A stretch of 64,000 bases of DNA from Actinomycetota bacterium (GTDB lineage: Bacteria > Actinomycetota > Acidimicrobiia > Spongiisociales > UBA4744), in NCBI GenBank assembly GCA_013152275.1, contig JAADGS010000018.1, positions 11,896 to 75,895 of the forward strand. Reading direction: 5' to 3'. The position numbers and the translations under genes were made by a program. Positions within the stretch are counted from its first letter, which is position 1. Every line of letters starts with the position of its first letter. A model generated the notes under the pieces. The model was given only the letters and a program-made list of their open reading frames with translations. It was not told the DNA's origin and ran no database searches. This document shows, one piece after another, positions 8,661 through 63,961 of this stretch.

Positions 8661-8768
8661 GGAACCGACTCCGCCACGGTCGGGGCCGGCCGGCGTTCGC
8701 TTGCAGGAACGTCGCCTGGCGCAGGGCACCCGGCGGGGCGGTATCAGCTCGTTCGGTCCCGGGAGGGC

Positions 8769-12485: not shown

Positions 12486-12536
12486 TTTCGTTTCCCCCCG
12501 CGTCGGCCGGCAGCCGGCATCGAGAAAGGAGCATGG

Positions 12537-12719
12537 ATGCTCTGGTTGTGGAAATGGTTCGCTCTGCGAGAAGAAGGGCAGGGGACCGTCGAGTATGTGC
12601 TCGTGATCCTCGCCGCTGCGGCGATCGCGCTGTCGTTGATTCAGTGGGCAAGTCATACGAGCTTGCTCCCCGGTCTGTTCGGGACCGTGTTGAAGAAGGT
12701 CATCGGCCTGGCGAAATGA
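12537..12719 (+). CDS. flp: Flp family type IVb prepilin
   Basis: 60 aa. Flp cleavage/maturation motif G/TVEYVLVI (G-XXXXEY) followed by a hydrophobic helix. AAGGAG SD. Confidence 0.85.
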   Translation: MLWLWKWFALREEGQGTVEYVLVILAAAAIALSLIQWASHTSLLPGLFGTVLKKVIGLAK

Positions 12720-19277: not shown

Positions 19278-20513
19278 ATGGAAATCGTCTTCCTTCGCCA
19301 CGGTGAGTCGACCGGCAACGCTTCGGGCCTGATCCAGGGGCGCGGCTCCAGTCCCCTGTCCGAAAGGGGCATGGCGCAGGCCGAAGTGGTGGCCCGACGC
19401 CTCACTCGAGGCAGGCCGTTCGATCTGATCGTCAGTTCGGACATGGAGCGAGCGGTGCAAACGGTCGGTGCGCTCGGTCTCCCGTTCGAACGCGACGCAG
19501 CATGGCGGGAGATGGATCTGGGTGCGTGGGATGGTGTGCCGATCACGGAGGTGGCCAAGCGCTTTCCCGAAGAGCTGGCCGCACTGCGGCGCGGAGATCC
19601 GGTGCCGATCGGGGGTACCGGGGAGACGTTCCCCGAGTTCACGGCCAGAGTCCGCGGCGCAATCGAGCGTCTCGTCGAGAAGATGGAAGGGAATGGACGT
19701 GTCCTCGTCTCGGCGCACGGTGGGGTCATCGAGCGAGTCATGGCCATCGTGATCGGCCGACCGCGTGCGGTTGCGTTCGCGGGTCGGGTGGCCAACACTT
19801 CGCTGACGACGGTTTCCGTGCGACCCTCTGGGATGCGTGTCGACCACTACAACGACACCACACACCTCGGGCCGGTCTCCGGATGGGCGGCCGAGCGTCT
19901 CGCCGCGGGGGATACGGTCGTCGCTCTCGTCCGCCACGGGCAGACCGCCGCCAACGATTCGGGCATCTGGCAAGGCCACTCGGACGGCGGCATCGATGAG
20001 GAGGGCAGGCGTCAGGCGACCCGATTGGCCGGCTGGCATGGGACCTTCGAAACGCTGTACTCGTCACCGCTCGGGCGGGCGCTCGAGACGGCTGCCCTGT
20101 TGCGCGCGGATGGCGTCCCCGTGGTCGTGCCCGGTTTGATGGAGCTGGGGATGGGGAAGTGGGAGGGGCACACCGTCGAGGAGATCAAGGCCGGGTGGCC
20201 CGGCGCCTGGCGGGCGATCTACGACGAAGGGGAGGACATTCCCAGGGGCGGTGACGGAGAGACGTGGAGTGGGATGGTTGCCAGGGTGTCCGAGGCGATC
20301 GGCGATATCGCTCGAGCGCATCAGGGCCGGCTCATCGGGGTGGTTTCGCACGGCGCCGCGATCCGAGGGTTCTGCTCGAGCCTCATCGGGTTGGACCATG
20401 AGCGCCGTCAGAGCCTGATCGCTCCGGGCAACACGTCGGTCAGCCACATCGTGTTCGGCGCGGACGGGCCGGTCCTCGCCGACTACAACGTCGGCCCCCT
20501 CCAGGTCACTTGA
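19278..20513 (+). CDS. tandem two-domain histidine phosphatase (two PGM-like domains)
   Basis: Two RHG motifs (IVFLRHGES and ALVRHGQTAAN), each followed by a PGM-like fold. The stop codon TGA at 20511-20513 lies inside REP copy D. Confidence 0.8.
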   Translation: MEIVFLRHGESTGNASGLIQGRGSSPLSERGMAQAEVVARRLTRGRPFDLIVSSDMERAVQTVGALGLPFERDAAWREMDLGAWDGVPITEVAKRFPEELAALRRGDPVPIGGTGETFPEFTARVRGAIERLVEKMEGNGRVLVSAHGGVIERVMAIVIGRPRAVAFAGRVANTSLTTVSVRPSGMRVDHYNDTTHLGPVSGWAAERLAAGDTVVALVRHGQTAANDSGIWQGHSDGGIDEEGRRQATRLAGWHGTFETLYSSPLGRALETAALLRADGVPVVVPGLMELGMGKWEGHTVEEIKAGWPGAWRAIYDEGEDIPRGGDGETWSGMVARVSEAIGDIARAHQGRLIGVVSHGAAIRGFCSSLIGLDHERRQSLIAPGNTSVSHIVFGADGPVLADYNVGPLQVT

Positions 20514-20563
20514 ACCCAGGGCTCGTATGCGTCGTCACGACCCCCCTGAGCCCTGGGTTCAAC
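20510..20563. repeat. REP-like palindromic element, copy D
   Basis: TTGAACCCAGGGCTCGTATGCGTCGTCACGACCCCCCTGAGCCCTGGGTTCAAC. It is the reverse complement of copy A. Confidence 0.85.
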
Positions 20564-20580
20564 GGATGTGGGGTGTGCAC

Positions 20581-20634
20581 TTGAACCCTGGGCTCGTATG
20601 CGTCGTGACGACCCCCCTGAGCCCTGGGTTCAAC
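20581..20634. repeat. REP-like palindromic element, copy E (tandem with D, 17-bp spacer)
   Basis: Near-identical to copy D. Confidence 0.85.
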
Positions 20635-20644
20635 GGATAGGGCG

Positions 20645-30609: not shown

Positions 30610-30702
30610 CATCTCGTACTTCGTATCTCGTGCCCCGCACTTCGTACGCGACATGGCACTGCTCCAAGACCGCGAGGCGGGTGAAACGGCGCTCGCCGAC
30701 CG
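30610..30702. repeat. Heptad-array/CGCTCGCC intergenic element (degenerate copy)
   Basis: CATCTCG TACTTCG TATCTCG TGCCCCG CACTTCG TACGCG (period 7), then GGCGCTCGCCGACC at 30687-30702. Lies between hpt and ftsH. Confidence 0.65.
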
Positions 30703-42183: not shown

Positions 42184-42794
42184 CAGACTCCTCCCGCCAC
42201 GTGAGCGACTTCCTTGCCCCAGGCTCGCCAGCCGGCCAACATGTCCGGCTCCGTCGGGGCCACGCCTGTGGTGGCATCGATCGCGAGCACCGCCTTCTGG
42301 ATCCGTTCCTCCCTCAGGAGGTCGTTCAGCTCCCCGTAGACGAGGGCATCCACCTTGCAGACTTCGACACACGCCGGTTCCTCGTCACGGCGGATGCGAT
42401 CGAAGCATCCGTCGCACTTGGTGGAGACGACCCGAGGCGCCGCCGCTTCGGCCTGCACATGGAACGTGATCGCAGCGAACGGGCAGACCATGGCGCACAT
42501 CGCGCAGGCGATGCACTTGTCGATGTCGACGAGAACGACGCCGAATTCGTCGTTGCGACCGATGGCCGCGGTCGGGCACACCTGCTGGCATGGCGCTGGG
42601 TCACAGTGGTGGCAACGGTTGGGGAACGAACTCCCCATCCATGGGCCGGATTCGACGTGGATCCTGGGCTTCGGCACAGGACTCTCGAAGATTGCCAGGT
42701 ACGGATCCTTGCTTCTGGAATGTTCGACCGCGCAGGCAAACTCACATTGCCGGCAGCCGATACATCGTTGTGGATTCACGAAGACTGTTTTCAC
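42183..42794 (-). CDS. cooF: CooF-type 4x[4Fe-4S] ferredoxin (CODH electron-transfer subunit)
   Basis: Four CxxCxxCxxxCP-type clusters (CIGCRQCEFAC, CHHCDPAPCQQVCP, CIACAMCAMVCP, CDGC...CVEVC). AGGAGG SD 7 nt before the GTG start. Confidence 0.85.
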   Translation of the reverse strand: MKTVFVNPQRCIGCRQCEFACAVEHSRSKDPYLAIFESPVPKPRIHVESGPWMGSSFPNRCHHCDPAPCQQVCPTAAIGRNDEFGVVLVDIDKCIACAMCAMVCPFAAITFHVQAEAAAPRVVSTKCDGCFDRIRRDEEPACVEVCKVDALVYGELNDLLREERIQKAVLAIDATTGVAPTEPDMLAGWRAWGKEVAHVAGGV

Positions 42795-42945
42795 ATGATC
42801 ACCTCCTGATGCGTCGTCGGGCGGGTTGTGCGCGTGACGGCGGCGCCCGTCGCCCAGGAGCCTGTTGGGCAATGCAAGGCACGTATCTCGACGACCGTGC
42901 AGCGCCCTTCGATGCAGTGAGCGACCGTGCTTTGTCACGCCAGAG

Positions 42946-43021
42946 CCGTCGCGCTCGCCCCGCGATCCCGAATCGACCCGAGGGTGCGATACGGAATGCG
43001 AAGCACCGGGTACGAGATGAG
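42946..43021. repeat. CGCTCGCC-core + CGAAG heptad intergenic element (upstream of cooF / DUF2520 divergent region)
   Basis: CCGTCGCGCTCGCCCCGCG ... GCGATACGGAATGCGAAGCACCGGGTACGAGATGAG. Shares its core and heptads with loci at 59.0, 61.7 and 63.0 kb. Confidence 0.7.
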
Positions 43022-43224
43022 TGATGCGTACAGTCGGCGATCCACGCACCGGCGTTACTCAGGAGACTTCTGGGTGGACAACTGGAAACTACCCCATGAT
43101 GCTTTCCACGCTAGCTCCGTACGTGCGTCGGCGTCGGCCTCGACGCGTTCTTGTGACAGATGGTGAGAACGGCGGGTAGCCTGTTGTCCGGTCGGGTACC
43201 GCGGACTCGAACCGGGAGGTTCCG

Positions 43225-48508: not shown

Positions 48509-49708
48509 TCAAGCCCCGTATCTGCGAGGATCGGTCAGCTCGCCGTCGACGGCGAGCGTGCGTTCGAACCCATCGATGCCCGACAGCGTGCCTGTGACGA
48601 TCACCGCGTCCCCGGGTTGGAAGCGCGCTGCCGCGGCCGACGCCACGATCACCTTGACGGTCAGTGGCCCGAACAGATCGGTGTCGATGGACCCGACGTC
48701 GACCGTCACACCTGATTCCGACCGCCCGGCCACGGTGCCGTTCCAGCGGATCTGCCGTCCGGCGTACCGTTCTTCGAATATCGCCGCCATCTGAAAGCTG
48801 AGCAGATGACCTCCGAAGAGCACATCGGCGACATCGAGCGGTTTGGGTCCGACCGGCGGGGTGTCGGGTGTGGGCTCGGGGACGGTGTCGCTTGGTTCGG
48901 CCGGTGGGGAGATCGTCACGAACTCGCCCGTCTCCGAGTCGAGTATCTCTTCGGAAGTGACCACTTCGGCCGGTGGGGAGATCGTCACGAACTCGCCCGT
49001 CTCCGAATCGAGTATCTCCTCGGAAGAGACCACTTCGGCCGGCGGCTCCTCGGCAAGAAGCTCCAGCCCGTCCCACGGCTGGAACAGGTCCGGTGCCGGC
49101 GGAGTCGAGTCGTCGTAGCTGGAGCCGACTCTGTTCGTTGGCATGTGCTCGCGTTGTGCGAGGACCGTTCCCGTGGCGAGGAGAAGGCGCGCGGTCTTCA
49201 CGATCCTGTCGAGCTTGCGTTCGAAGATCCTGCGCTCGAACACGATGGTGTCATCGGTGATCTTCGCCGCCGGGAGTGTGACCAGGAGTTCGCGCACCGC
49301 CTGGCGCATCGGAGGGGTAAACACGGTCGCCAGTCGCTCCGGGTCGCTGGTCTTGACCGTGAACACCTCGTCGAACGCCTCGTCTCCCGTCTCTGCGTCC
49401 TGGGCTCCCAGGAACTCCGAGACCTTCGAGAGCCCGGTCTTGCGGGTCACCTGCAGGCCTACGCCGAGCGACGGGTACCGAACGCGATACCTCGTCGATT
49501 TCGTGTTGCCGGATGAGCGCACCTCGATCGTGAGGCCAAGTCCTTCGACCTCACCTTCGATCCTCGGAGGGGCCATGGCACTCTTCTTCTGATAGGCGAC
49601 GCCGAGCAGGCGAGCCGCCCCTCGCCACGTCGCGGTGACCTGCCTGTTCGAGACCAGAGACAGGATGCCGATGCCGATTGCGATGGCGATGATGAGAGGG
49701 AAGTCCAT
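48509..49708 (-). CDS. hypothetical membrane-anchored protein with 23-aa tandem duplication
   Basis: N-terminal TM helix. Internal repeat SPPAEVV[ST]SEEILDSETGEFVTI x2, encoded by two 69-bp DNA copies with 3 mismatches. No recognised domain. Confidence 0.6.
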   Translation of the reverse strand: MDFPLIIAIAIGIGILSLVSNRQVTATWRGAARLLGVAYQKKSAMAPPRIEGEVEGLGLTIEVRSSGNTKSTRYRVRYPSLGVGLQVTRKTGLSKVSEFLGAQDAETGDEAFDEVFTVKTSDPERLATVFTPPMRQAVRELLVTLPAAKITDDTIVFERRIFERKLDRIVKTARLLLATGTVLAQREHMPTNRVGSSYDDSTPPAPDLFQPWDGLELLAEEPPAEVVSSEEILDSETGEFVTISPPAEVVTSEEILDSETGEFVTISPPAEPSDTVPEPTPDTPPVGPKPLDVADVLFGGHLLSFQMAAIFEERYAGRQIRWNGTVAGRSESGVTVDVGSIDTDLFGPLTVKVIVASAAAARFQPGDAVIVTGTLSGIDGFERTLAVDGELTDPRRYGA

Positions 49709-49789
49709 ACAGGTCAGTGTACGGGGTCATCACCCGACCTTTGCGTGAGGATGTTTCAGGAGACCGGCACCGAACTCCGGTACCGGGCC

Positions 49790-50809
49790 CTACGAGCGTG
49801 CCTGCTCGACCTGGGCCAGCAGGTAGTCGCCGAGGCCGGCCAGCACATTCCTGGAGGGGATGGGTGCAAGATCGGCGGCGATCGAGGCTGCCGCCAGGGA
49901 TCTCGTGCGCGCCTCGTCGAGCACCTGATCGACGAAACCGCCGGCCCGGACGATGCGGATGACTTCGTTGATCGTTCCGGCCGCGTACGGGCGATCGGCC
50001 AAGAGCTCTCGGATGTGGGGTCCGTCGGCTCCTTCGAGCGCGTAGAGCAGGGGCAGCGTGAACTTGCCTTCGCCGATGTCCGACCCCGCCGGCTTTCCGA
50101 GGAACTCGTCGGTGGCGACCAGATCGAGCGCATCGTCGGTGATCTGGAAGATGATGCCCAGCTCCCGTGCCCACGCACTCAGCGCCTCGACCGTGGCGGG
50201 TGTCGCGTCGGCTGCCATCGCCCCCACGCGGGCCGACGCCCGGATCAGCGATGCCGTCTTCATCTCCACGACCCGGTAGTACTCGTCCGGTCCATGATCG
50301 AGATCGAAGTCCAACTGCAGCTCCAACGTCTGCCCCTCGACGAGTTCCGCATAGGTGCGGGAGAGAAGTCGAACGGCGTCGCGCCCGAGCGAGTCCGCAG
50401 CGAGCTCCGTCGCGCGGGCCATGAGGAAATCGCCGGCAAGGATCGCGACCGTGTTCCCCCAGTTGGTGTTCACAGAGCCCGTTCCCCGACGGGTCTCCGC
50501 CTCGTCGATGACATCGTCGTGGTAGAGGCTGCCAACGTGGATGAACTCGACGGCGACGCCCGCGTCGACGACACGATCGTCGATCGATCGCCCGAACTCA
50601 CCTGCGATCTGCGCGAGGAGGGGGCGGAAGCGTTTCCCGCCGGCGAGCAGGAGGTGTTGCGCGATGTCGGTGAGGAACTCGTAGCTCGACATCGACACTT
50701 CGGCCAAGCGCGTCTCGACACGCCGCATGCGGTCCCAGACGGCAGGAATCGGGACCAGGTTCTCGAGTTTTGGTGTGTCCACTCGGGTTCTCCGTCGTTG
50801 AGCCAGCAT
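49790..50809 (-). CDS. polyprenyl diphosphate synthase (trans-IPPS)
   Basis: FARM LYHDDVIDEA and SARM FQITDDALD motifs. Start is uncertain (50809 vs 50851). Confidence 0.85.
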   Translation of the reverse strand: MLAQRRRTRVDTPKLENLVPIPAVWDRMRRVETRLAEVSMSSYEFLTDIAQHLLLAGGKRFRPLLAQIAGEFGRSIDDRVVDAGVAVEFIHVGSLYHDDVIDEAETRRGTGSVNTNWGNTVAILAGDFLMARATELAADSLGRDAVRLLSRTYAELVEGQTLELQLDFDLDHGPDEYYRVVEMKTASLIRASARVGAMAADATPATVEALSAWARELGIIFQITDDALDLVATDEFLGKPAGSDIGEGKFTLPLLYALEGADGPHIRELLADRPYAAGTINEVIRIVRAGGFVDQVLDEARTRSLAAASIAADLAPIPSRNVLAGLGDYLLAQVEQARS

Positions 50810-53530: not shown

Positions 53531-53550
53531 GCCCGGCGGCCACCGGGTCG

Positions 53551-53687
53551 GTATTTCGTACTTCGTACTTCGTACCGGGCAGCCCTCGGATCGTCCACGG
53601 TTTGCACGTAGCGCGGCGCCGCGACGCTCGCCGCACGGTGTTGGGTCGACATGAGGCCGCGATGCCGAATACCAGGTACCAGGTACC
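53551..53687. repeat. Heptad/CGCTCGCC modular intergenic element (downstream of clpC1, upstream of BMP gene)
   Basis: GTATTTCG TACTTCG TACTTCG TACC ... GCGACGCTCGCCGCACGG ... CCGAATACCAGGTACCAGGTACC. Confidence 0.7.
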
Positions 53688-53815
53688 TCCCACTGCGAGC
53701 CTCTCCGGAGGCCGTCTGATCGGCCGTCCCGCTTCTTCGCTTGCGCCGGGAGTGGCTACACTCATTCGTAATTCTGGGCCCTATGGCCCCACTACCCACT
53801 ACTCAGGAGGGCGTG

Positions 53816-58888: not shown

Positions 58889-59000
58889 CTTGGTACCTCG
58901 TGCTTGGTGCTTGGTGCTTGGTGCTTGGTACTTGGTACTTGGTACTTGGTACTTGGTACTTGGTACTTGGTACTTGGTACTTGGTACTTGGTACTTGGTA
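58889..59000. repeat. 7-bp microsatellite (CTTGGTA/CTTGGTG) x ~16 uninterrupted
   Basis: CTTGGTA CCTCGTG (CTTGGTG)x3 (CTTGGTA)x11. Intergenic between convergent genes. Confidence 0.95.
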
Positions 59001-59010
59001 CCGGCAGAAG

Positions 59011-59070
59011 CCGCGACGCTCGCCCTACGGTCTTGGTGCCGGGCAGGTTGCGATACGAAATACGAAATAC
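59011..59070. repeat. CGCTCGCC-core + CGAAA heptad element adjacent to microsatellite
   Basis: CCGCGACGCTCGCCCTACGG ... GCGATACGAAATACGAAATAC. Confidence 0.75.
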
Positions 59071-59130
59071 TTTCTCGGCAACCGTCGAAGCGTTCCCGAC
59101 GGATGACCTCGTATCAACCGAGAACCGGGG

Positions 59131-60021
59131 TCACTTGGTCGGGCGGCCCCAGAATTCCAGTTCGGCGATCGCCAGCTCGTTGTACGGGGTCTTACCGTCG
59201 ACGGACTGTGACGCATACGTCGAGGTGACCTTGAAGGTGATCTGGGTCGTGCTGAAGCTCGTCACCGCGATGGGCTGCGCCCTCTTTGTGTCTTCGAGTT
59301 GGTCGATGAACGGGGCGTCCGGTAGATCATCGAAATCGATCTCGAAACCTTTGACCCTGTAGTTCATCTTGAACTTCTTGTCGTCCGAGACGTTCTTGAA
59401 GACGATCGTCTGCAGCGCGTACGCCTGTGCGAACGTCACTTCGATCTCGGCGCCCTTGCCCTTTGCCGAGGCGTCGTTCCAGTACGTGCTGTCTTGACCG
59501 TCGAAGAGGTTGTCACAGGAGAGGCTTTCGTTGAGCTCACTGGAGCAGCGCCAGTCGATCGGGACGATCTTCACCGGGATCGCAGCCACGGTCGTCGATG
59601 TGGTGGAGGACGTCGGTGGGACTGCAGGAGTCTTGTTGCCGAGCAGCGAGTTGACCGCGAACGCGAGGATGGCTACGACCGCGACCGTCCCGAAGATCAC
59701 TGCGAGGGCGCGCGCTCCGGCGGTGGTGCGGATCATGGGCTGGGGAGCGACCGGCAGTGGACCTTGGGTGATGCGGGCGCCACACTGCTCACAGTGACGG
59801 TTCGTGGACGGGTTGGAGGCTCCACATGAGGGGCAGATCACAGCGTCGACCATCGGGGAGACCGAGACAATCGGTTCGATCTCTTGGCCCTCTGGAGGCT
59901 CATCGAGGTCGAACGTTTCGTATCCCGCGGATTGGATCGAGCCGATCCACTGTCCGCAGTTGGGACAGAACTCCTGTTCCTCGAAGACCTCTCCACAGTT
60001 GCTGCATGTGATCTGTGCCAA
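59131..60021 (-). CDS. membrane protein: N-terminal double zinc-ribbon, TM helix, C-terminal discoidin/F5-8-type-C-like domain
   Basis: CSNCG...CPNCG and CPSCG...CEQCG pairs. TM (ALAVIFGTVAVVAILAFAV). C-terminal ...YNELAIAELEFWG typical of galactose-binding-like/discoidin domains. Confidence 0.65.
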   Translation of the reverse strand: MAQITCSNCGEVFEEQEFCPNCGQWIGSIQSAGYETFDLDEPPEGQEIEPIVSVSPMVDAVICPSCGASNPSTNRHCEQCGARITQGPLPVAPQPMIRTTAGARALAVIFGTVAVVAILAFAVNSLLGNKTPAVPPTSSTTSTTVAAIPVKIVPIDWRCSSELNESLSCDNLFDGQDSTYWNDASAKGKGAEIEVTFAQAYALQTIVFKNVSDDKKFKMNYRVKGFEIDFDDLPDAPFIDQLEDTKRAQPIAVTSFSTTQITFKVTSTYASQSVDGKTPYNELAIAELEFWGRPTK

Positions 60022-60197
60022 CGGTGCCTTCCTCGTTCAGTTGCTATTCTGCCACGTGCGTGCCATCTCTCGCGATCAGAACGGCGGAAACTTGGACGGC
60101 CGGCAATCTTGTCGGCGGTTTTCTCCTTCTCGCGCTCGTCGCGCTTGCCGTGATCGCCATCTTTCGTGTCACTCTGCGTCGGTAGCATCACCTCCAC

Positions 60198-61478
60198 ATG
60201 AAGTATCTCTGTTCGTCGTGTGGACATCGATCCGCGAAGTGGATGGGGTTCTGTCCTCAGTGTGGTTCGAGAGAGGCGCTGGTCGAGGATCGAGCTACAC
60301 GGCGCGCTGCGCCACCGGAAGTCGTCCCGGTCGCGTCCGCGGCAGCCTCGGCAGGTGATCGCTCTCCGGTCGGCATCGGTGAGATCGACCGGGTGCTCGG
60401 AGGTGGGATCGTCCCCGGGGCGGTGCTGCTCCTCGGTGGCGAACCCGGCGTCGGCAAATCCACCCTTCTTCTGCAGGCTGCAGGATCGTTCGCCGGGACA
60501 GGGCGCAGCGTGCTCATCGCGACCGCGGAGGAGTCTTCACATCAGGTCGGGCTGCGGGCCAAGCGCCTGGGCGTGGATTCTCCACGGGTGTCACTCGTTG
60601 CCGATTCCGACATCGATGCCATCCTTGCCGCGGCCGACGCGATGCGGCCGGATCTGCTCATCGTCGACTCCATCCAGACGGTCTCCGCTCCCGGAGTCGG
60701 ATCCGTGCCCGGTTCGGTCTCCCAGGTCAGAGAGTGTGCGGCCAGAGTCATCCAACATGCGAAGGAGCATGCCACCGCTGCGGTGCTCGTCGGGCACATA
60801 ACCAAGGACGGAGGCATTGCAGGTCCCAAGACGCTGGAGCACATGGTCGACGTCGTCTTGTACCTCGAGGGTGAGAGCAACATGGGGTTGCGCGCTCTGC
60901 GGGGGCTGAAGAACCGGTTCGGACCGACCCATCGACTCGGCCTGTTCGAGATGCGGAGCGAGGGTCTCGCGGAGGTCGAGGACCCATCTGCGGCGTTTCT
61001 CTCCGACTGGAGGGGCTCCTCGGCGGGGACGGTCGTGTTTCCGACGGTCGAGGGGAGACGCCCGGTTCTCGTCGAAGTTCAGGCCCTCGTGTCGCCGAGT
61101 TCGGTGCCGCAGCCCCGACGCAGTGTCCGTGGCCTCCAACCGGCACGCGTCCATCAGCTTCTCGCCGTCATGGAGCGCCACGCGGGCCTCGGCTTCTCGG
61201 CGCACGAGGTGTACGTCAACGTCGTTGGCGGGATTCGGGTCTCCGAGCCGGGGGCCGACCTTCCGGTCGCGCTCGCGCTTGCATCTTCCCTGCTCGATCG
61301 GCCGCTGGGATCGCTCGCGTCGTGGGGTGAGATCGGCCTGACCGGCGAGGTCCGTCCGGTCGCCCACGAGCGAAGGCGCCGGGAAGAGTCGGCCCGTCTG
61401 GGTATCGAACGAGTCGTCGGCCCGAGGAGCGGTGCCCCTTCCAGTCTGCGCGACGCGTTGGAGAAGGCGTTCGGCTGA
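60198..61478 (+). CDS. radA: DNA repair protein RadA/Sms
   Basis: N-terminal zinc finger CSSCGH...CPQCG, RecA-like Walker A GEPGVGKST, KNRFG motif, and a Lon-like C-terminus. Confidence 0.95.
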   Translation: MKYLCSSCGHRSAKWMGFCPQCGSREALVEDRATRRAAPPEVVPVASAAASAGDRSPVGIGEIDRVLGGGIVPGAVLLLGGEPGVGKSTLLLQAAGSFAGTGRSVLIATAEESSHQVGLRAKRLGVDSPRVSLVADSDIDAILAAADAMRPDLLIVDSIQTVSAPGVGSVPGSVSQVRECAARVIQHAKEHATAAVLVGHITKDGGIAGPKTLEHMVDVVLYLEGESNMGLRALRGLKNRFGPTHRLGLFEMRSEGLAEVEDPSAAFLSDWRGSSAGTVVFPTVEGRRPVLVEVQALVSPSSVPQPRRSVRGLQPARVHQLLAVMERHAGLGFSAHEVYVNVVGGIRVSEPGADLPVALALASSLLDRPLGSLASWGEIGLTGEVRPVAHERRRREESARLGIERVVGPRSGAPSSLRDALEKAFG

Positions 61479-61509
61479 CACGGTGCCCCTCTTGCCGGTT
61501 GCCGAGCAG

Positions 61510-61737
61510 GTACTTCGTTCCTTGTACTTCGTATCGCGACCTGCCCGGCGCCGAGACCGTGGGGCGAGCGTCGCGGCTCCTGATAGCCGTTCGCCGGCTG
61601 CTCAACTGCCGCAACCCTGCCAGGCGTTTCTGCAAGGCATCGAGAGCGGTGATTGTGGGAAGGAGCCACACTCGCCCTGAGGTGCTGCGGCAGTGGTGGC
61701 GGCGGTACCGAATACGAAGCACCGGGTACGAAGAGCG
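61510..61737. repeat. Composite palindromic element: [TACTTCG heptads]-[GGGGCGAGCGTCGCGGCTCC]-~70 bp-[GGAGCCACACTCGCCCTGAGG]-[CGAAG heptads]
   Basis: Heptads at 61510-61536 (+) and 61699-61737 (-). Inverted 22-bp cores at 61557-61580 and 61652-61673. Lies between radA and disA. Confidence 0.8.
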
Positions 61738-61794
61738 AAGCGAGCCCGGCTGATCCCCGTAACCGTTCCGGGGCCGCACTAGTCTTCACCAGCA

Positions 61795-62856
61795 ATGACC
61801 TCCGACCTCTTCCTGCAGACCGTTCAGCGGCTCGCTCCGGGGACTCCGATCCGGATAGCGTTTGGACGTATCATCCAGGAGGAGAACGGTGCCCTCGTCG
61901 TCCTTGGCGACGGACCCGAGGTTCAAGCGATCTGCTCCGGGGGTTTCGATCTTTCCGGCACCGAGTTCTCGTCTGCCAGGCTTGCCGAACTGGCGAAGAT
62001 GGATGGTGCGATCATCATCGACGATTCGTGGAGCAAGATTCTGCGGGCCAACGTGCACCTGTTGCCGGATCCGTCGATCGCGACCGTCGAGACCGGTGCC
62101 CGTCATCGGACTGCCGAACGGGTGGCCGTTCAGACGGGTAAGCCGGTCGTTGCCGTGAGTGAGGATCGACGCGTGGCGACCCTGTTCCTCCATGACATGC
62201 GTCAGGAGCTGCAGGATCCGACGGATCTCATGGCGTCGGTGAACCAGTCTCTTTCCACCCTCGAGCGTGTTCGCAGGCGCCTCGATGAGGCGGAGGAGCG
62301 GCTCACCCCGTTGGAAGTCTCCGACCTGGTCACGTATCGGCGGGTTGTCGTGCTCGTGCAGCGAGCCGAACTCGTCCGCAGGATCGGCGATTCGATCAAA
62401 GAGGATCTCATCGGGCTGGGCGGGGCCGGCGATCTTGCACGCCTGCAGCTGACCGATCTCATGCAGGGAGTCGTCGAGCTCAGGGATCTCGTCGTTCGAG
62501 ATTACGTGCGGCCGTTGCGAGTGGGCACGGTCGAACGCAGGCTCAAACGGCTCGAGGCCGTTCCCACCGCGGAGCTACATGAGCCGGATGCCGTGGCAGA
62601 GGCTCTCGGCTTCGAACATCTCGACGAGCGTGCAGAGCCCTTGGGTATTCGCGTGCTCAATCAGGTTCCCCGCTTGCCGGACAACATTCGCGACGGTGTT
62701 GCCAAGCATTTCCGGAGTCTTCAGAAGATGATGAGTGCCTCGGCGGCCGAGCTGGATTCTGTCACGGGGATCGGCAAGGCGAGAGCGCAGGAGCTGCGCA
62801 GAGTGTTCGACCGATTGCAGGAATCCGTTCATTCGTGGGACCACGAACCGCTCTGA
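61795..62856 (+). CDS. disA: DNA integrity scanning protein DisA (diadenylate cyclase)
   Basis: DAC domain (DGAIIID, RHRTAERV), linker, and a C-terminal HhH. Confidence 0.9.
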   Translation: MTSDLFLQTVQRLAPGTPIRIAFGRIIQEENGALVVLGDGPEVQAICSGGFDLSGTEFSSARLAELAKMDGAIIIDDSWSKILRANVHLLPDPSIATVETGARHRTAERVAVQTGKPVVAVSEDRRVATLFLHDMRQELQDPTDLMASVNQSLSTLERVRRRLDEAEERLTPLEVSDLVTYRRVVVLVQRAELVRRIGDSIKEDLIGLGGAGDLARLQLTDLMQGVVELRDLVVRDYVRPLRVGTVERRLKRLEAVPTAELHEPDAVAEALGFEHLDERAEPLGIRVLNQVPRLPDNIRDGVAKHFRSLQKMMSASAAELDSVTGIGKARAQELRRVFDRLQESVHSWDHEPL

Positions 62857-62970
62857 CGCGTCCGCCAGGCAACGCACACGGCAGTAGCCGGTTTCGGGCC
62901 TTCCGCGGCCGACCTTCAGCAAGAGCCACCACGCTCGTCCCGCGGTCTCGACGCCTGGCGGGTCGTGACA

Positions 62971-63098
62971 CGCAGTACGAAGCACGAGAAACGTACGGAT
63001 GCGGCGGGCCTCCGGCTTCTGGCGAAAGCCGCTACGCTCGCCCCGGCGTCTCATGGCGACTGCCGCTGCGCAACGAAGTACGAAATGCAAAGCACGGG
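62971..63098. repeat. CGCTCGCC-core + CGAAG heptad element, upstream of carD
   Basis: CGCAGTACGAAGCACGAGAAACGTACGG ... GCCGCTACGCTCGCCCCGGCG ... CAACGAAGTACGAAATGCAAAGCACGGG. Confidence 0.75.
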
Positions 63099-63148
63099 TG
63101 AGTGCAGCGAGACCACCGAGTAGAATCCCCCTCCCAACCTGAGGATCT

Positions 63149-63961
63149 ATGGCTACACCGAAGAAACCTGCCGCGAAGAAAACGGCTGCCAAGCCGGCGG
63201 CGAAGAAGCCTGCGGCGAAGAAGCCTGCGGCCAAGACCGGCACGAAGACGGCGGCGAAGAAGCCCGCGGCCAAGAAACCTGCGGCCAAGGCTCCTGCGAA
63301 GACGGCGAAACCCGCAGCAAAGAAAGCGGTTGCGAAGACGGCGGCGAAGAAACCTGCGGCCAAGGCTCCTGCGAAGACGGCGGCGAAGAAGCCTGCCGCG
63401 AAGAAGACAACCGCCAAGACGGCGGCGAAGAAGCCCGCGGCCAAGAAACCGTCGATCTTCAGCGTCGGTGACAAGGTCGTGCATCCACAACACGGTGCCG
63501 CGATCATCGTCAAGAAAGTGCGGCAGACGGTTGCCGGCTCCCGCCAGGAGTACTTCGTGCTCGAGATCGCGACGGAGCAACTCACCGTCTTCGCCCCGGT
63601 CGACACGATCGAGGAAACGATTCGCCCGGTGATCTCCAAGAATCAGGCACGCAAGGTTCTTGCGGTCTTCAAAGATCCTCCGCAGGAGGCAGGGAGCAAC
63701 TGGAGCCGGTGGTACAAGATACTGAATGAGAAGATGACCAGCGGGGACATCTACCAGGTCGCCGAGGTCGTGAGGGATCTCACCTACGCGCAGCAGATCA
63801 AGGGAATCTCCCCGGCTCTCAAGAGGATGCTCTCCCGTGCACGACTGACGTTGACATCCGAGTTGCAGTTTGCGCTGAACGTGGGTGAGGAAGAAGCGAC
63901 CAAACGCCTCGACCGGGCTCTGCCCACCGTGGAGGAGCCGGACGCCGGCGGTACGACGTGA
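63149..63961 (+). CDS. carD: CarD/CdnL-family RNAP-binding transcription regulator with N-terminal Lys/Ala/Pro-rich histone-H1-like repeat extension
   Basis: Residues 1-~95 are AAKKPAAKK repeats, encoded by 18-bp DNA tandem repeats at 63166-63440. They are followed by [16 protein letters not shown]...[25 protein letters not shown], which matches the CarD RID and C-terminal domains. Confidence 0.8.

Follow-up and report, generated by a model that had tools for sequence, protein, structure and literature searches.

A modular family of intergenic repeats with heptamer tails in a genome of the Acidimicrobiia

The 64-kb stretch of DNA analyzed here (hereafter the window) is part of contig JAADGS010000018.1 of the Actinomycetota assembly GCA_013152275.1, positions 11,896 to 75,895 of the forward strand, and its intergenic gaps between 30 and 64 kb carry a family of non-coding repeats that end in arrays of 7-bp units. 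The G+C content of the window is 65%, and its genes form a conserved actinobacterial housekeeping stretch: topA, tmk, holB, an extracytoplasmic function (ECF) sigma factor gene, tilS, hpt, ftsH and folK, followed by cooS/cooF, panC and lysS, and then by clpC, a BMP-type ABC transporter, a Zn-ribbon protein gene, radA, disA and carD. ClpC of the window is identical to NCBI NOY54650.1, and the DisA and ClpC homologues that bear organism names come from annotated Acidimicrobiia or Actinomycetota metagenome-assembled genomes (MAGs). The host belongs to an uncultivated lineage of the Acidimicrobiia. There is no transposase, integrase or phage gene within the approximately 45 open reading frames (ORFs) of the 64-kb window, and the repeat elements themselves are without coding potential. 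The sequence in hand comprised the window and about 150 kb of related loci. Close relatives were reached through look-ups with DisA and ClpC: L192 is bacterium BMS3Abin02 (GCA_002897675.1), L193 and L055 are from JGI 3300003886, and L194, L056 and L057 belong to a single ENA/Logan lineage. Their gene order is identical to that of the window, and a fraction of 0.69-0.82 of their 4-fold degenerate sites is identical. More distant are L058 and L061 (DisA 77-78% identical to the window) and L185 (DisA 64%).

The window is confirmed to carry a real, modular family of repeats confined to intergenic DNA. Inspection of the sequence shows that the six loci listed in an initial annotation exist where they had been placed, and they contain eight units of approximately 75-100 nt each together with two solo heptamer arrays, in six intergenic gaps. 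Each unit consists of a head of about 50 nt, GGCAGGAGCCGCGACGCTCGCCCYACGGTCTYGGYGCCGGGCAGGTYGCGA, followed by a heptamer tail (TACGAAR)n, an arrangement aligned over 11 copies; read from the opposite strand the tail is the T-rich (YTTCGTA)n, and the best-preserved units terminate in CCTGCTCGGCAACCG. The heptad dimer TACGAAGTACGAAG, allowing up to two mismatches, has 18 matches in the window against 0.18 expected from shuffles, and every one of them lies within the six loci. A profile built exclusively from four copies in related genomes found all eight window units and the solo arrays, and it gave no match in 20 shuffled windows. The core of about 20 bp that the initial annotation had described in each copy is a different matter. 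The core 13-mer GCGACGCTCGCCC has two exact matches in the window, and at up to two mismatches it has 22 against 14.7 expected. In a scan of metagenome contigs the 21-nt core GCCGCGACGCTCGCCNNACGG gave at least 120 matches, nearly all of which fall within coding regions of GC-rich genomes and none of which is accompanied by heptads; a viral scan gave 0 matches. Because the metagenome matches are unrelated coding sequence, the core alone is not specific, and it is meaningful only within the longer unit of about 75 nt; the true repeat is the 75-100-nt unit. A scan of genome contigs with the 17-mer CGAAGCACCGGGTACGA gave random matches at 52 of 53 loci, the sole real heptad array being in L021, a Gemmatimonadaceae locus described below. 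The members of the family in the window are as follows, with the matches of the relatives-only profile and the period-7 arrays called by Tandem Repeats Finder (TRF).

E1, 30613-30699, minus strand: unit found with nhmmer (relatives-only profile match 30700-30628, minus strand, E 1e-6); its heptad tail, 30612-30648, reads CTCGTACTTCGTATCTCG...CACTTCGTA on the plus strand and begins 10 nt past the hpt stop codon (30601); positions 30688-30702 hold GGCGCTCGCC, a core-like fragment in forward orientation.
E2, 42936-43023, plus strand: unit in the divergent gap between cooF (minus strand, real start near 42794) and DUF2520-panC (plus strand), with tail TACGGAATGCGAAGCACCGGGTACGAGA (profile match 42939-43025, plus strand, E 2.5e-5).
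E3 left array, 53549-53577, minus strand: solo array (GTACTTC)3.6 (TRF 53551-53575, 3.6 copies), beginning 18 nt past the clpC stop codon (53530) and immediately preceded by a small hairpin at 53537-53550, found in a scan for terminator-like structures.
E3 unit, 53611-53690, plus strand: head GCCGCGACGCTCGCCGCACGG..., tail (TACCAGG)2.6 (TRF 53670-53687, 2.6 copies; profile match 53618-53688, plus strand, E 1e-5).
E4 left array, 58889-59004, minus strand: solo array (CTTGGTA)16 (TRF 58889-59001, 16.1 copies), beginning 5 nt past the permease stop codon (58883).
E4 unit, 59000-59086, plus strand: canonical unit (nhmmer match 59000-59070) with head, then (ATACGAA)2.6 (TRF 59053-59070, 2.6 copies), then terminal CTTTCTCGGCAACCG; the tail points at the convergent Zn-ribbon gene, toward its 3' end (relatives-only profile match 58999-59070, plus strand, E 7e-18).
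Vestige, 59108-59123, plus strand: GGTTCTC/GAGAACC-family vestige CAACCGAGAACCGG beside the stop codon of the Zn-ribbon gene (59131), where L058 and L061 have intact arrays.
E5-left, 61502-61587, minus strand: canonical unit with tail GTACTTCGTTCCTTGTACTTCGTATC, beginning 32 nt past the radA stop codon (61478) (profile match 61587-61500, minus strand, E 1e-21).
E5-right, 61652-61741, plus strand: diverged unit (nhmmer match 61652-61736) with tail GTACCGAATACGAAGCACCGGGTACGAAGAGCGAAG; the tail ends at 61741, 54 nt before the disA ATG (profile match 61661-61737, plus strand, E 3.6e-5).
E6a, 62915-62997, plus strand: unit missed by the initial annotation and found by profiles built without it (E 3.6e-13 and 3e-14; relatives-only profile match 62915-62995, plus strand).
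E6b, 63017-63101, plus strand: unit whose tail abuts the carD promoter region, with a TAGAAT -10-like box at 63121-63126 (profile match 63017-63106, plus strand, E 9e-10).

The units stand head-to-head at 61.5 kb, in tandem at 62.9-63.1 kb and singly elsewhere, forming an extragenic, multi-copy mosaic of alternating orientation with a density of about one unit per 5-8 kb in the clpC-carD region. Decayed copies that fall under the profile threshold probably exist in other gaps too. The 61.5-kb composite E5 is a pair of head-to-head units whose heptad arms (61513-61534 and 61712-61733) each span 22 nt and show 82% complementarity. Beside the stop codon of the polyprenyl synthase gene, at 49740-49790 of the window and at 8700-8755 of L194, there are degenerate GGTACC-bearing remnants (ggcaccgaactccggtaccgggcc), and here L193 has a complete unit.

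How are the repeats placed relative to genes? All units and arrays are intergenic, and within a unit the tail is always the part that is nearer to the gene; in head-to-head units the tails point outward to the flanking genes. Inverted array pairs occur at E3, E4 and E5. Arrays adjacent to a stop codon begin 5-32 nt past it and are T-rich on the mRNA strand of that gene, and this orientation on the outgoing transcript holds in 14 of the 14 Acidimicrobiia cases listed (about eight of them independent), across five heptad families. A GC-rich hairpin stands directly before the array in about seven of 11 cases. Forward units place A-rich tails upstream of the next gene, and three such tails (ends 53687, 61741 and 63098) stop 51-54 nt before the start codon. 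The placement of one locus between convergent genes was correctly noted at the outset: E4 occupies the gap between the permease and Zn-ribbon genes, and its left array is the longest. The neighboring genes are housekeeping genes (clpC, radA, disA, carD, ftsH and the ABC transporter). The implied further reading that the elements tie stress and housekeeping genes into a regulon finds no support, as units are found in both orientations, at 3' ends, between a convergent pair and in a divergent promoter gap, and among close relatives they are present or absent beside unchanged flanking genes.

Two -10-like boxes, TAGTCT for disA and TAGAAT for carD, sit downstream of the elements, and because these boxes are conserved in relatives, disA and carD each keep their own promoter past the repeats. 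The disA box (window 61777-61797) is 12 nt before the ATG, and a leaderless or near-leaderless mRNA would therefore result; the carD box (window 63121-63151) has a short leader. A scan for the sigma-70 consensus gave no match, and neither did a comparison by eye with ClgR, LexA, sigma-54 and -10 TANNNT boxes. Strong conservation marks the divergent gap that separates the Zn-ribbon gene from radA, as far as the relatives with 64% DisA identity (window 60015-60205, L056 6381-6615, L058 8479-8715, L061 2050-2235, L185 8342-8617 and L192 18737-18972). At the end of the gap, 12 nt before the ATG of radA, stands CGTGTCAC-N10-TAGCAT, which we take to resemble the actinobacterial RecA-independent DNA-damage (PafBC-type) promoter motif. 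Being conserved, this gap serves as an internal control for a constrained spacer in the clade, whereas the gaps that bear elements change fast.

Comparison between strains had been proposed for copy number and position, and both do differ among the close relatives. The left array of E4 has 16 copies in the window, three in L193/L055, four in L056/L057/L194 and none in L192, and the right array has 2.6 heptads in the window, five in L193/L055, 4.5 in L056/L057/L194 and about two in L192. Orthologues of E2 are found in L192 (2016-2102) and L194 (2009-2095), and the unit is absent from L193. E3 is complete in the window; L193 retains both arrays with the head missing, the L194 contig ends inside the left array, and in L192 the block is missing, leaving a 115-bp gap directly after the small hairpin. 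E5-left is present in L056/L057, has a tail two heptads shorter in L193, and is absent from L192, L058 and L061. E5-right is a segment of about 150 bp with CCGGCTG direct repeats on both sides, absent from L056/L057 and L192. Conversely, L193 has an extra unit at 8672-8739 where the window has a mere vestige. Assemblies break or are gap-filled at the arrays, namely at L056 7860-7960 (an N-run), the L057 start, the L194 end (12509-12541), the L193 end and the L055 start, and since they break exactly there, the elements fragment MAGs of this clade.

The canonical copies w59, w61L, L056_5360, L056_9200 and L057 are 80-88% identical, orthologous or not. L056_9200, from the disA-carD gap of a relative, shares 87% identity with the radA-disA unit w61L and approximately 70% (hand count) with its positional counterpart at 62915-62997. 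Overall the copies are heterogeneous, at 55-88% identity. The heads are constrained or homogenized, and the tails are hypermutable. Searches of plasmid and phage collections with blastn gave no match.

In the more distant lineages the heptads differ at the shared loci and keep the outward-facing layout, often after a GC-rich hairpin just past the stop codon. L058 and L061 have GGTTCTC or GGTTCTG heptads. Their radA-disA gap is 32-51 bp long and has no element, and in their permease/Zn-ribbon gap, as in the disA-carD gap of L061, inverted GGTTCTC-family arrays lie behind hairpins such as GCTCGCGAAGCGAGC beside each stop codon. Four of the same gaps are occupied in L185, with the heptads AGTTGTC, TTCCAGT, AACGAGG and CCAGTTY/CCAACTG: the hairpin GGGCGGCCC...GGGCCGCCC is bordered by AGTTGTC and TTCCAGT arrays both downstream of clpC and downstream of the permease gene, (AACGAGG)4-5 immediately precedes disA, and downstream of disA (CCAGTTY)5 faces (CCAACTG)3. 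Each genome thus uses a heptad dialect of its own at several loci, and one dialect takes the place of another at the same gene boundaries, since the heptads of L058, L061 and L185 differ at shared loci and a GGTTCTC vestige survives beside the newer unit in the window. Similar arrays exist in a different phylum. L021 (6580-6850; Gemmatimonadaceae MAG DASSIC010000428.1) has GTACGAA/GTACGAG/GTACCAG arrays between convergent genes, and a stretch of 17 nt in them recurs unchanged in two window tails; the heptads are shared, the head is not. L186, an 81%-identity relative of L021, has a 16-bp gap at this position and no arrays. Arrays of the GTACGAR type are sporadic in unrelated IMG/VR contigs. 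Two IMG/VR contigs of 62-63% G+C, L189 (4480-4580) and L191 (2790-2890), have adjacent short-period arrays composed of (GGGACCAT)3, (TTGGTAC)4 and TTCCCAGT/TACTTAG-type units.

The folding potential of the elements is uneven. At the gathering threshold of Rfam 15 the sole match in the window is a tRNA, and at E <= 1 there is no match in 53.4-63.3 kb and there are two unrelated sub-threshold matches in 30.4-43.3 kb. Single units fold with z about 0 save for two copies. Whole elements that beat shuffles are E4 of L061 (z = -5.9), E4 of the window (-5.5), the L021 arrays (-5.6) and E4 of L058 (-2.3); the window E4 array folds strongly because (CUUGGUA)n pairs with itself via GUAC and G.U pairs. 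For window E3 and E6 (z +0.75 and +0.5) and for the disA-carD element of L061 no fold better than shuffles was found. The initial annotation had described the 61.5-kb composite as inverted cores with outward heptads and cruciform potential. The architecture stands; the cruciform potential was overstated, the fold of E5 being marginal (z = -1.65) and folding being weak at most loci. The U-rich tract of an array is the repeated heptamer itself, with 3-4 U per 7 nt, and it fails the standard U-run criterion except at one site.

Several other ideas were set aside. Display of the array in a hairpin loop looked promising for w61L and L056_9200, but when array flanks were tested against an empirical null, significance was reached in 1 of 22 arrays only. 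The tetranucleotide GTAC is not depleted in the window (185 observed, approximately 210 expected), as a restriction-avoidance signal would require. By reasoning from composition alone, the C>G requirement of Rho utilization (rut) sites is unmet by CTTGGTA, GGTTCTG and AGTTGTC.

The family is best understood against repeat systems already described. The heptanucleotide repeats of cyanobacteria such as Calothrix are known as short tandemly repeated repetitive (STRR) sequences. The over-representation of heptamer repeats in bacterial intergenic DNA has been noted since 2007, with no function and no means of spread on record (PMC4692102, PMC4679880). In the part of PMC4692102 drawn on here, heptamer families include (GGGAATC)n of Xanthomonas, (GGGGAYT)n of Nostoc and the cyanobacterial heptanucleotide repeats first reported in Calothrix; they have from two to about 26 copies and a genome-specific consensus, lie between the same gene pairs in related species and show no association with a gene class. 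About 90% of the Xanthomonas GGGAATC arrays are found between genes. The arrays are nearer to the upstream ORF, at a mean distance of 28 nt, than to the gene that follows, form at least 70 inverted pairs and differ in length between species (PMC4692102). TAACTGA repeats of marine Beggiatoaceae, cyanobacteria and Bacteroidetes number 169 sets in one genome and are intergenic; nearly all of their arrays are direct and lie a few nt upstream of start codons, for which translational control has been suggested (PMC4679880).

The window family matches the Xanthomonas, Nostoc and Beggiatoaceae heptamer families in every descriptive trait that we tested. Like the Xanthomonas and cyanobacterial families it has tandem 7-nt units, a genome-specific consensus, an intergenic location near the end of the upstream ORF, inverted pairs and length variation. 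Unlike those of Xanthomonas and Nostoc, its heptads are GTAC-based (TACGAAR, CTTGGTA, TACCAGG) and not G-rich, and therefore have no G-quadruplex potential. Also unlike the Xanthomonas-type families, the window arrays are joined to a conserved, non-repetitive head of about 50 nt, and no such head is mentioned in the part of PMC4692102 that we cite; because array and head are physically joined, they act as one repeat unit. As with TAACTGA, which distant phyla share, GTACGAR-type arrays occur both in the window and in the Gemmatimonadaceae MAG L021, and the L185 units CCAACTG/CTGACTG resemble TAACTGA itself; unlike TAACTGA, the window arrays are linked to a head, and most of them are found close to 3' ends or as inverted pairs. 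The initial annotation did not recognize a described element here. For the sequence this holds, since there is no Rfam family, a literature search for the literal heptad strings found no paper that contains them, and our literature search found no heptamer family reported for this actinobacterial class. For the kind of element it does not, intergenic heptamer arrays being on record in the two studies just cited.

Repetitive extragenic palindromic (REP) sequences and the bacterial interspersed mosaic elements (BIMEs) that contain them act as terminators or mRNA stabilizers. Like REPs, BIMEs and REPINs (REP doublets forming hairpins), the window family is extragenic, multi-copy and genome-specific, forms mosaics of alternating orientation and inverted doublets, and lies at gene 3' ends or inside operons. 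Unlike them, its unit is not an imperfect palindrome of 20-40 nt and has no GTAG-type 5' tetranucleotide, whereas REPs carry no microsatellite tails; with a unit that lacks a conserved fold, the earlier statement that these are not REP hairpins was right. Unlike the REPIN system, no gene for a REP-associated tyrosine transposase (RAYT) was seen among window ORFs or called genes of related loci. With miniature inverted-repeat transposable elements (MITEs) the family shares small size, lack of coding potential, intergenic location, inverted ends in composites, presence/absence polymorphism and an internal or terminal tandem repeat, and an excerpt of PMC4596501 describes a Porphyromonas gingivalis MITE that contains a minisatellite. 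It differs from MITEs in having no target-site duplication, no defined terminal inverted repeat beyond the variable arrays and no parent insertion sequence that could be found, and many copies are single-ended: the heptad arms of E5 are inverted, as MITE termini are, but arm length and sequence vary and many units are one-armed. Finally, the elements resemble intrinsic or bidirectional terminators in having a GC-rich hairpin past the stop codon followed by a U-rich array (in relatives and at window 53537-53577) and two modules facing each other at convergent genes, and differ from intrinsic terminators in that several arrays have no preceding hairpin.

What might these elements be? The explanation that we prefer, with about even confidence, is a lineage-specific, non-coding, interspersed mosaic repeat family that behaves like BIMEs, REPINs and MITEs while belonging to none of them, with slippage-prone tails and a terminator or insulator effect at gene ends. 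It is set apart from those three in that its unit is no palindrome and that neither target-site duplications nor an enzyme were found. The observed expansion and contraction of the tails would be most simply explained by slipped-strand mispairing. Heads or whole units are gained, lost or partly deleted between short direct repeats. Copies at different loci stay near a genome-specific consensus, and gene conversion, a mobilizing activity or selection would keep them there; over longer times one heptad dialect replaces another at the same gene boundaries. On leaving a gene, a transcript would run into an array that is T/U-rich and prone to form hairpins, in many cases immediately behind a GC-rich hairpin, and this would probably make the elements terminator or insulator modules. 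If the units act at all, it is probably at gene boundaries in this manner, as REPs and BIMEs do.

A number of observations weigh against this preferred explanation. Neither the window ORFs nor the called genes in the approximately 150 kb of related loci include a transposase, and no consistent target-site duplication appeared when filled sites were compared with empty ones: window E3 with L192, window E5-right with L057, and the L193 unit at 8672 with both L192 and the window. The edges of the insertions and deletions bear short imperfect direct repeats only (CCGGCTG, GCCGCGA, ACGGCCGG); deletion fits equally, and such repeats fit slippage or illegitimate recombination as well as insertion. 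There are no units in the first 30 kb of the window, and the two large DNA scans, with the 17-mer and with the core, gave nearly only chance matches. Conserved secondary structure, one of the checks suggested at the outset, was not found, RNAalifold giving a consensus of -2.66 kcal/mol over 11 units with no covariation; half of the window elements fold no better than shuffles, and array flanks are complementary at one locus only. The proposed terminator role is a matter of sequence logic. Moreover, orthologous heads are 82-94% identical, at or above the level of the 4-fold sites, which hints at selection on the head sequence itself, something that a purely selfish model does not need.

Could selection have come first? 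The elements might be primarily selected transcription terminators and not mobile DNA, in which case the arrays would be expandable substitutes for U-tracts in a 65% G+C genome, the inverted pairs would be back-to-back bidirectional terminators, and the likeness between loci would reflect selection for what the termination machinery reads. The T-rich-on-mRNA rule, the presence of arrays at the same gene boundaries in lineages down to 64% DisA identity, the conservation of heads at least as great as that of 4-fold sites, and the order of stop codon, GC-rich hairpin and U-rich heptads in L185, L058, L061 and the window clpC locus (for example GGGCGGCCC-UCCG-GGGCCGCCC then UUCCAGUUUCCAGUUCUCAG) all agree with this. 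We nevertheless consider it rather unlikely, because units also occur where no terminator is needed, upstream of genes, in the divergent promoter gap (E2) and in tandem (E6), and because they are dispensable in relatives, L192 being without E3 and E5 and the L058/L061 radA-disA gaps being so short. Three stop-proximal arrays of the window (hpt, permease and radA) have no preceding hairpin, and the 50-nt conserved, foldless head is left without a reason. Another possibility, implied by the initial annotation, is DNA-level binding platforms, on which a nucleoid-associated protein or regulator bound to the heptads, the head or both would control or insulate ftsH, the BMP transporter, disA, carD and cooF. 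A head conserved in sequence without a fold, the 82-94% identity of orthologous heads against 71-81% at 4-fold sites, the three tails that end at a similar distance before a start codon, the one that abuts the carD -10/-35 region, and a genome-specific dialect that would suit co-evolution with a trans-acting factor are all in keeping with such platforms. However, neither the distance nor the orientation of units relative to promoters is fixed, units lie at a convergent pair and at 3' ends, presence varies among near relatives with identical gene order, and the constrained Zn-ribbon/radA gap is kept to the 64%-identity relatives while element-bearing gaps are not. In addition, a 7-bp spacing places successive sites 240 degrees apart on the helix, compared with the 10-11-bp phasing of known direct-repeat regulators. 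We consider binding platforms of this type an unlikely explanation.

Were the elements ordinary MITEs, an insertion sequence at another place in the genome would have given rise to them by deletion, and the arrays would be the subterminal repeats to which its transposase binds. The outward, inverted tails, the insertion/deletion polymorphism among close relatives and the similar copies (a subfamily) at non-orthologous loci are what such elements would show, but the copies are old and heterogeneous, the termini are undefined, the arrays are variable and many units are single-ended, and there is no transposase in the loci in hand and no plasmid or phage match. An insertion sequence or MITE with terminal repeats and target-site duplications had been named in advance as the finding that would overturn a new family; no duplication and no parent element were found, and we regard ordinary MITEs as very unlikely. 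Most improbable of all is a reading of the arrays as independent microsatellites or contingency (phase-variation) loci by which adjacent promoters are tuned, the shared core being coincidental GC-rich sequence. Their copy number is hypervariable, and in Haemophilus influenzae heptamer promoter repeats reportedly control hmw1A/hmw2A expression, but the alignment of a 50-nt head over at least 11 copies, with profile E values down to 1e-21, largely refutes the idea, the longest array occupies a gap between convergent genes, which has no promoter, and the neighbors are housekeeping genes, not surface or virulence genes.

A more speculative possibility, which we consider unlikely, is that arrays and head together are recognition platforms for a lineage-specific trans-acting factor that tunes the copies to one dialect and uses them as insulators. 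Such a factor may bind RNA and act in termination or against read-through, or it may be a domesticated recombinase of the REPIN/RAYT type. If it exists, it would amount to a factor-dependent, microsatellite-based terminator or insulator system whose specificity co-evolves genome-wide, and it would explain the lineage-specific heptads at shared boundaries, the arrays that are always U-rich out of the gene, the heads conserved above 4-fold sites and the recurrence of heptamer families in unrelated phyla.

Some features of the window lie outside the repeat family. CarD (window 63149-63961) has an N-terminal extension of about 100 residues that is rich in Lys, Ala and Pro and histone H1-like, with AKKPAAKK repeats and a weak match to Pfam HC2. 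The length of this extension varies by in-frame insertions and deletions, even between the window and the otherwise identical L001 (1570-1676), and also in L056 (9363-9470); CarD is 211-224 aa long in the 77% relatives and 270 aa in the window, and in L192 it has no fewer than 318 aa. At 20507-20638, where the His_Phos and topA genes converge, there is a 71-bp tandem duplication, 96% identical, that is not of the heptad family, and each copy holds a long hairpin, TTGAACCCAGGGCTC...GAGCCCTGGGTTCAA, possibly a duplicated terminator. At 48896-49042 a 69-bp (23-codon) tandem duplication, also 96% identical, lies in frame within the gene at 48509-49708 (minus strand).

The joining of arrays to a conserved head makes homologous copies of these repeats recognizable and traceable. 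The related genomes form a graded series in which the same gene boundaries carry the same family at other copy numbers, then another dialect, and then none. The arrays break metagenome assemblies, and they could serve as strain markers. The orientation rule, by which the outgoing transcript is U-rich and often follows a hairpin, leads to a testable hypothesis of termination or insulation in high-G+C bacteria, whose terminators are poorly understood.

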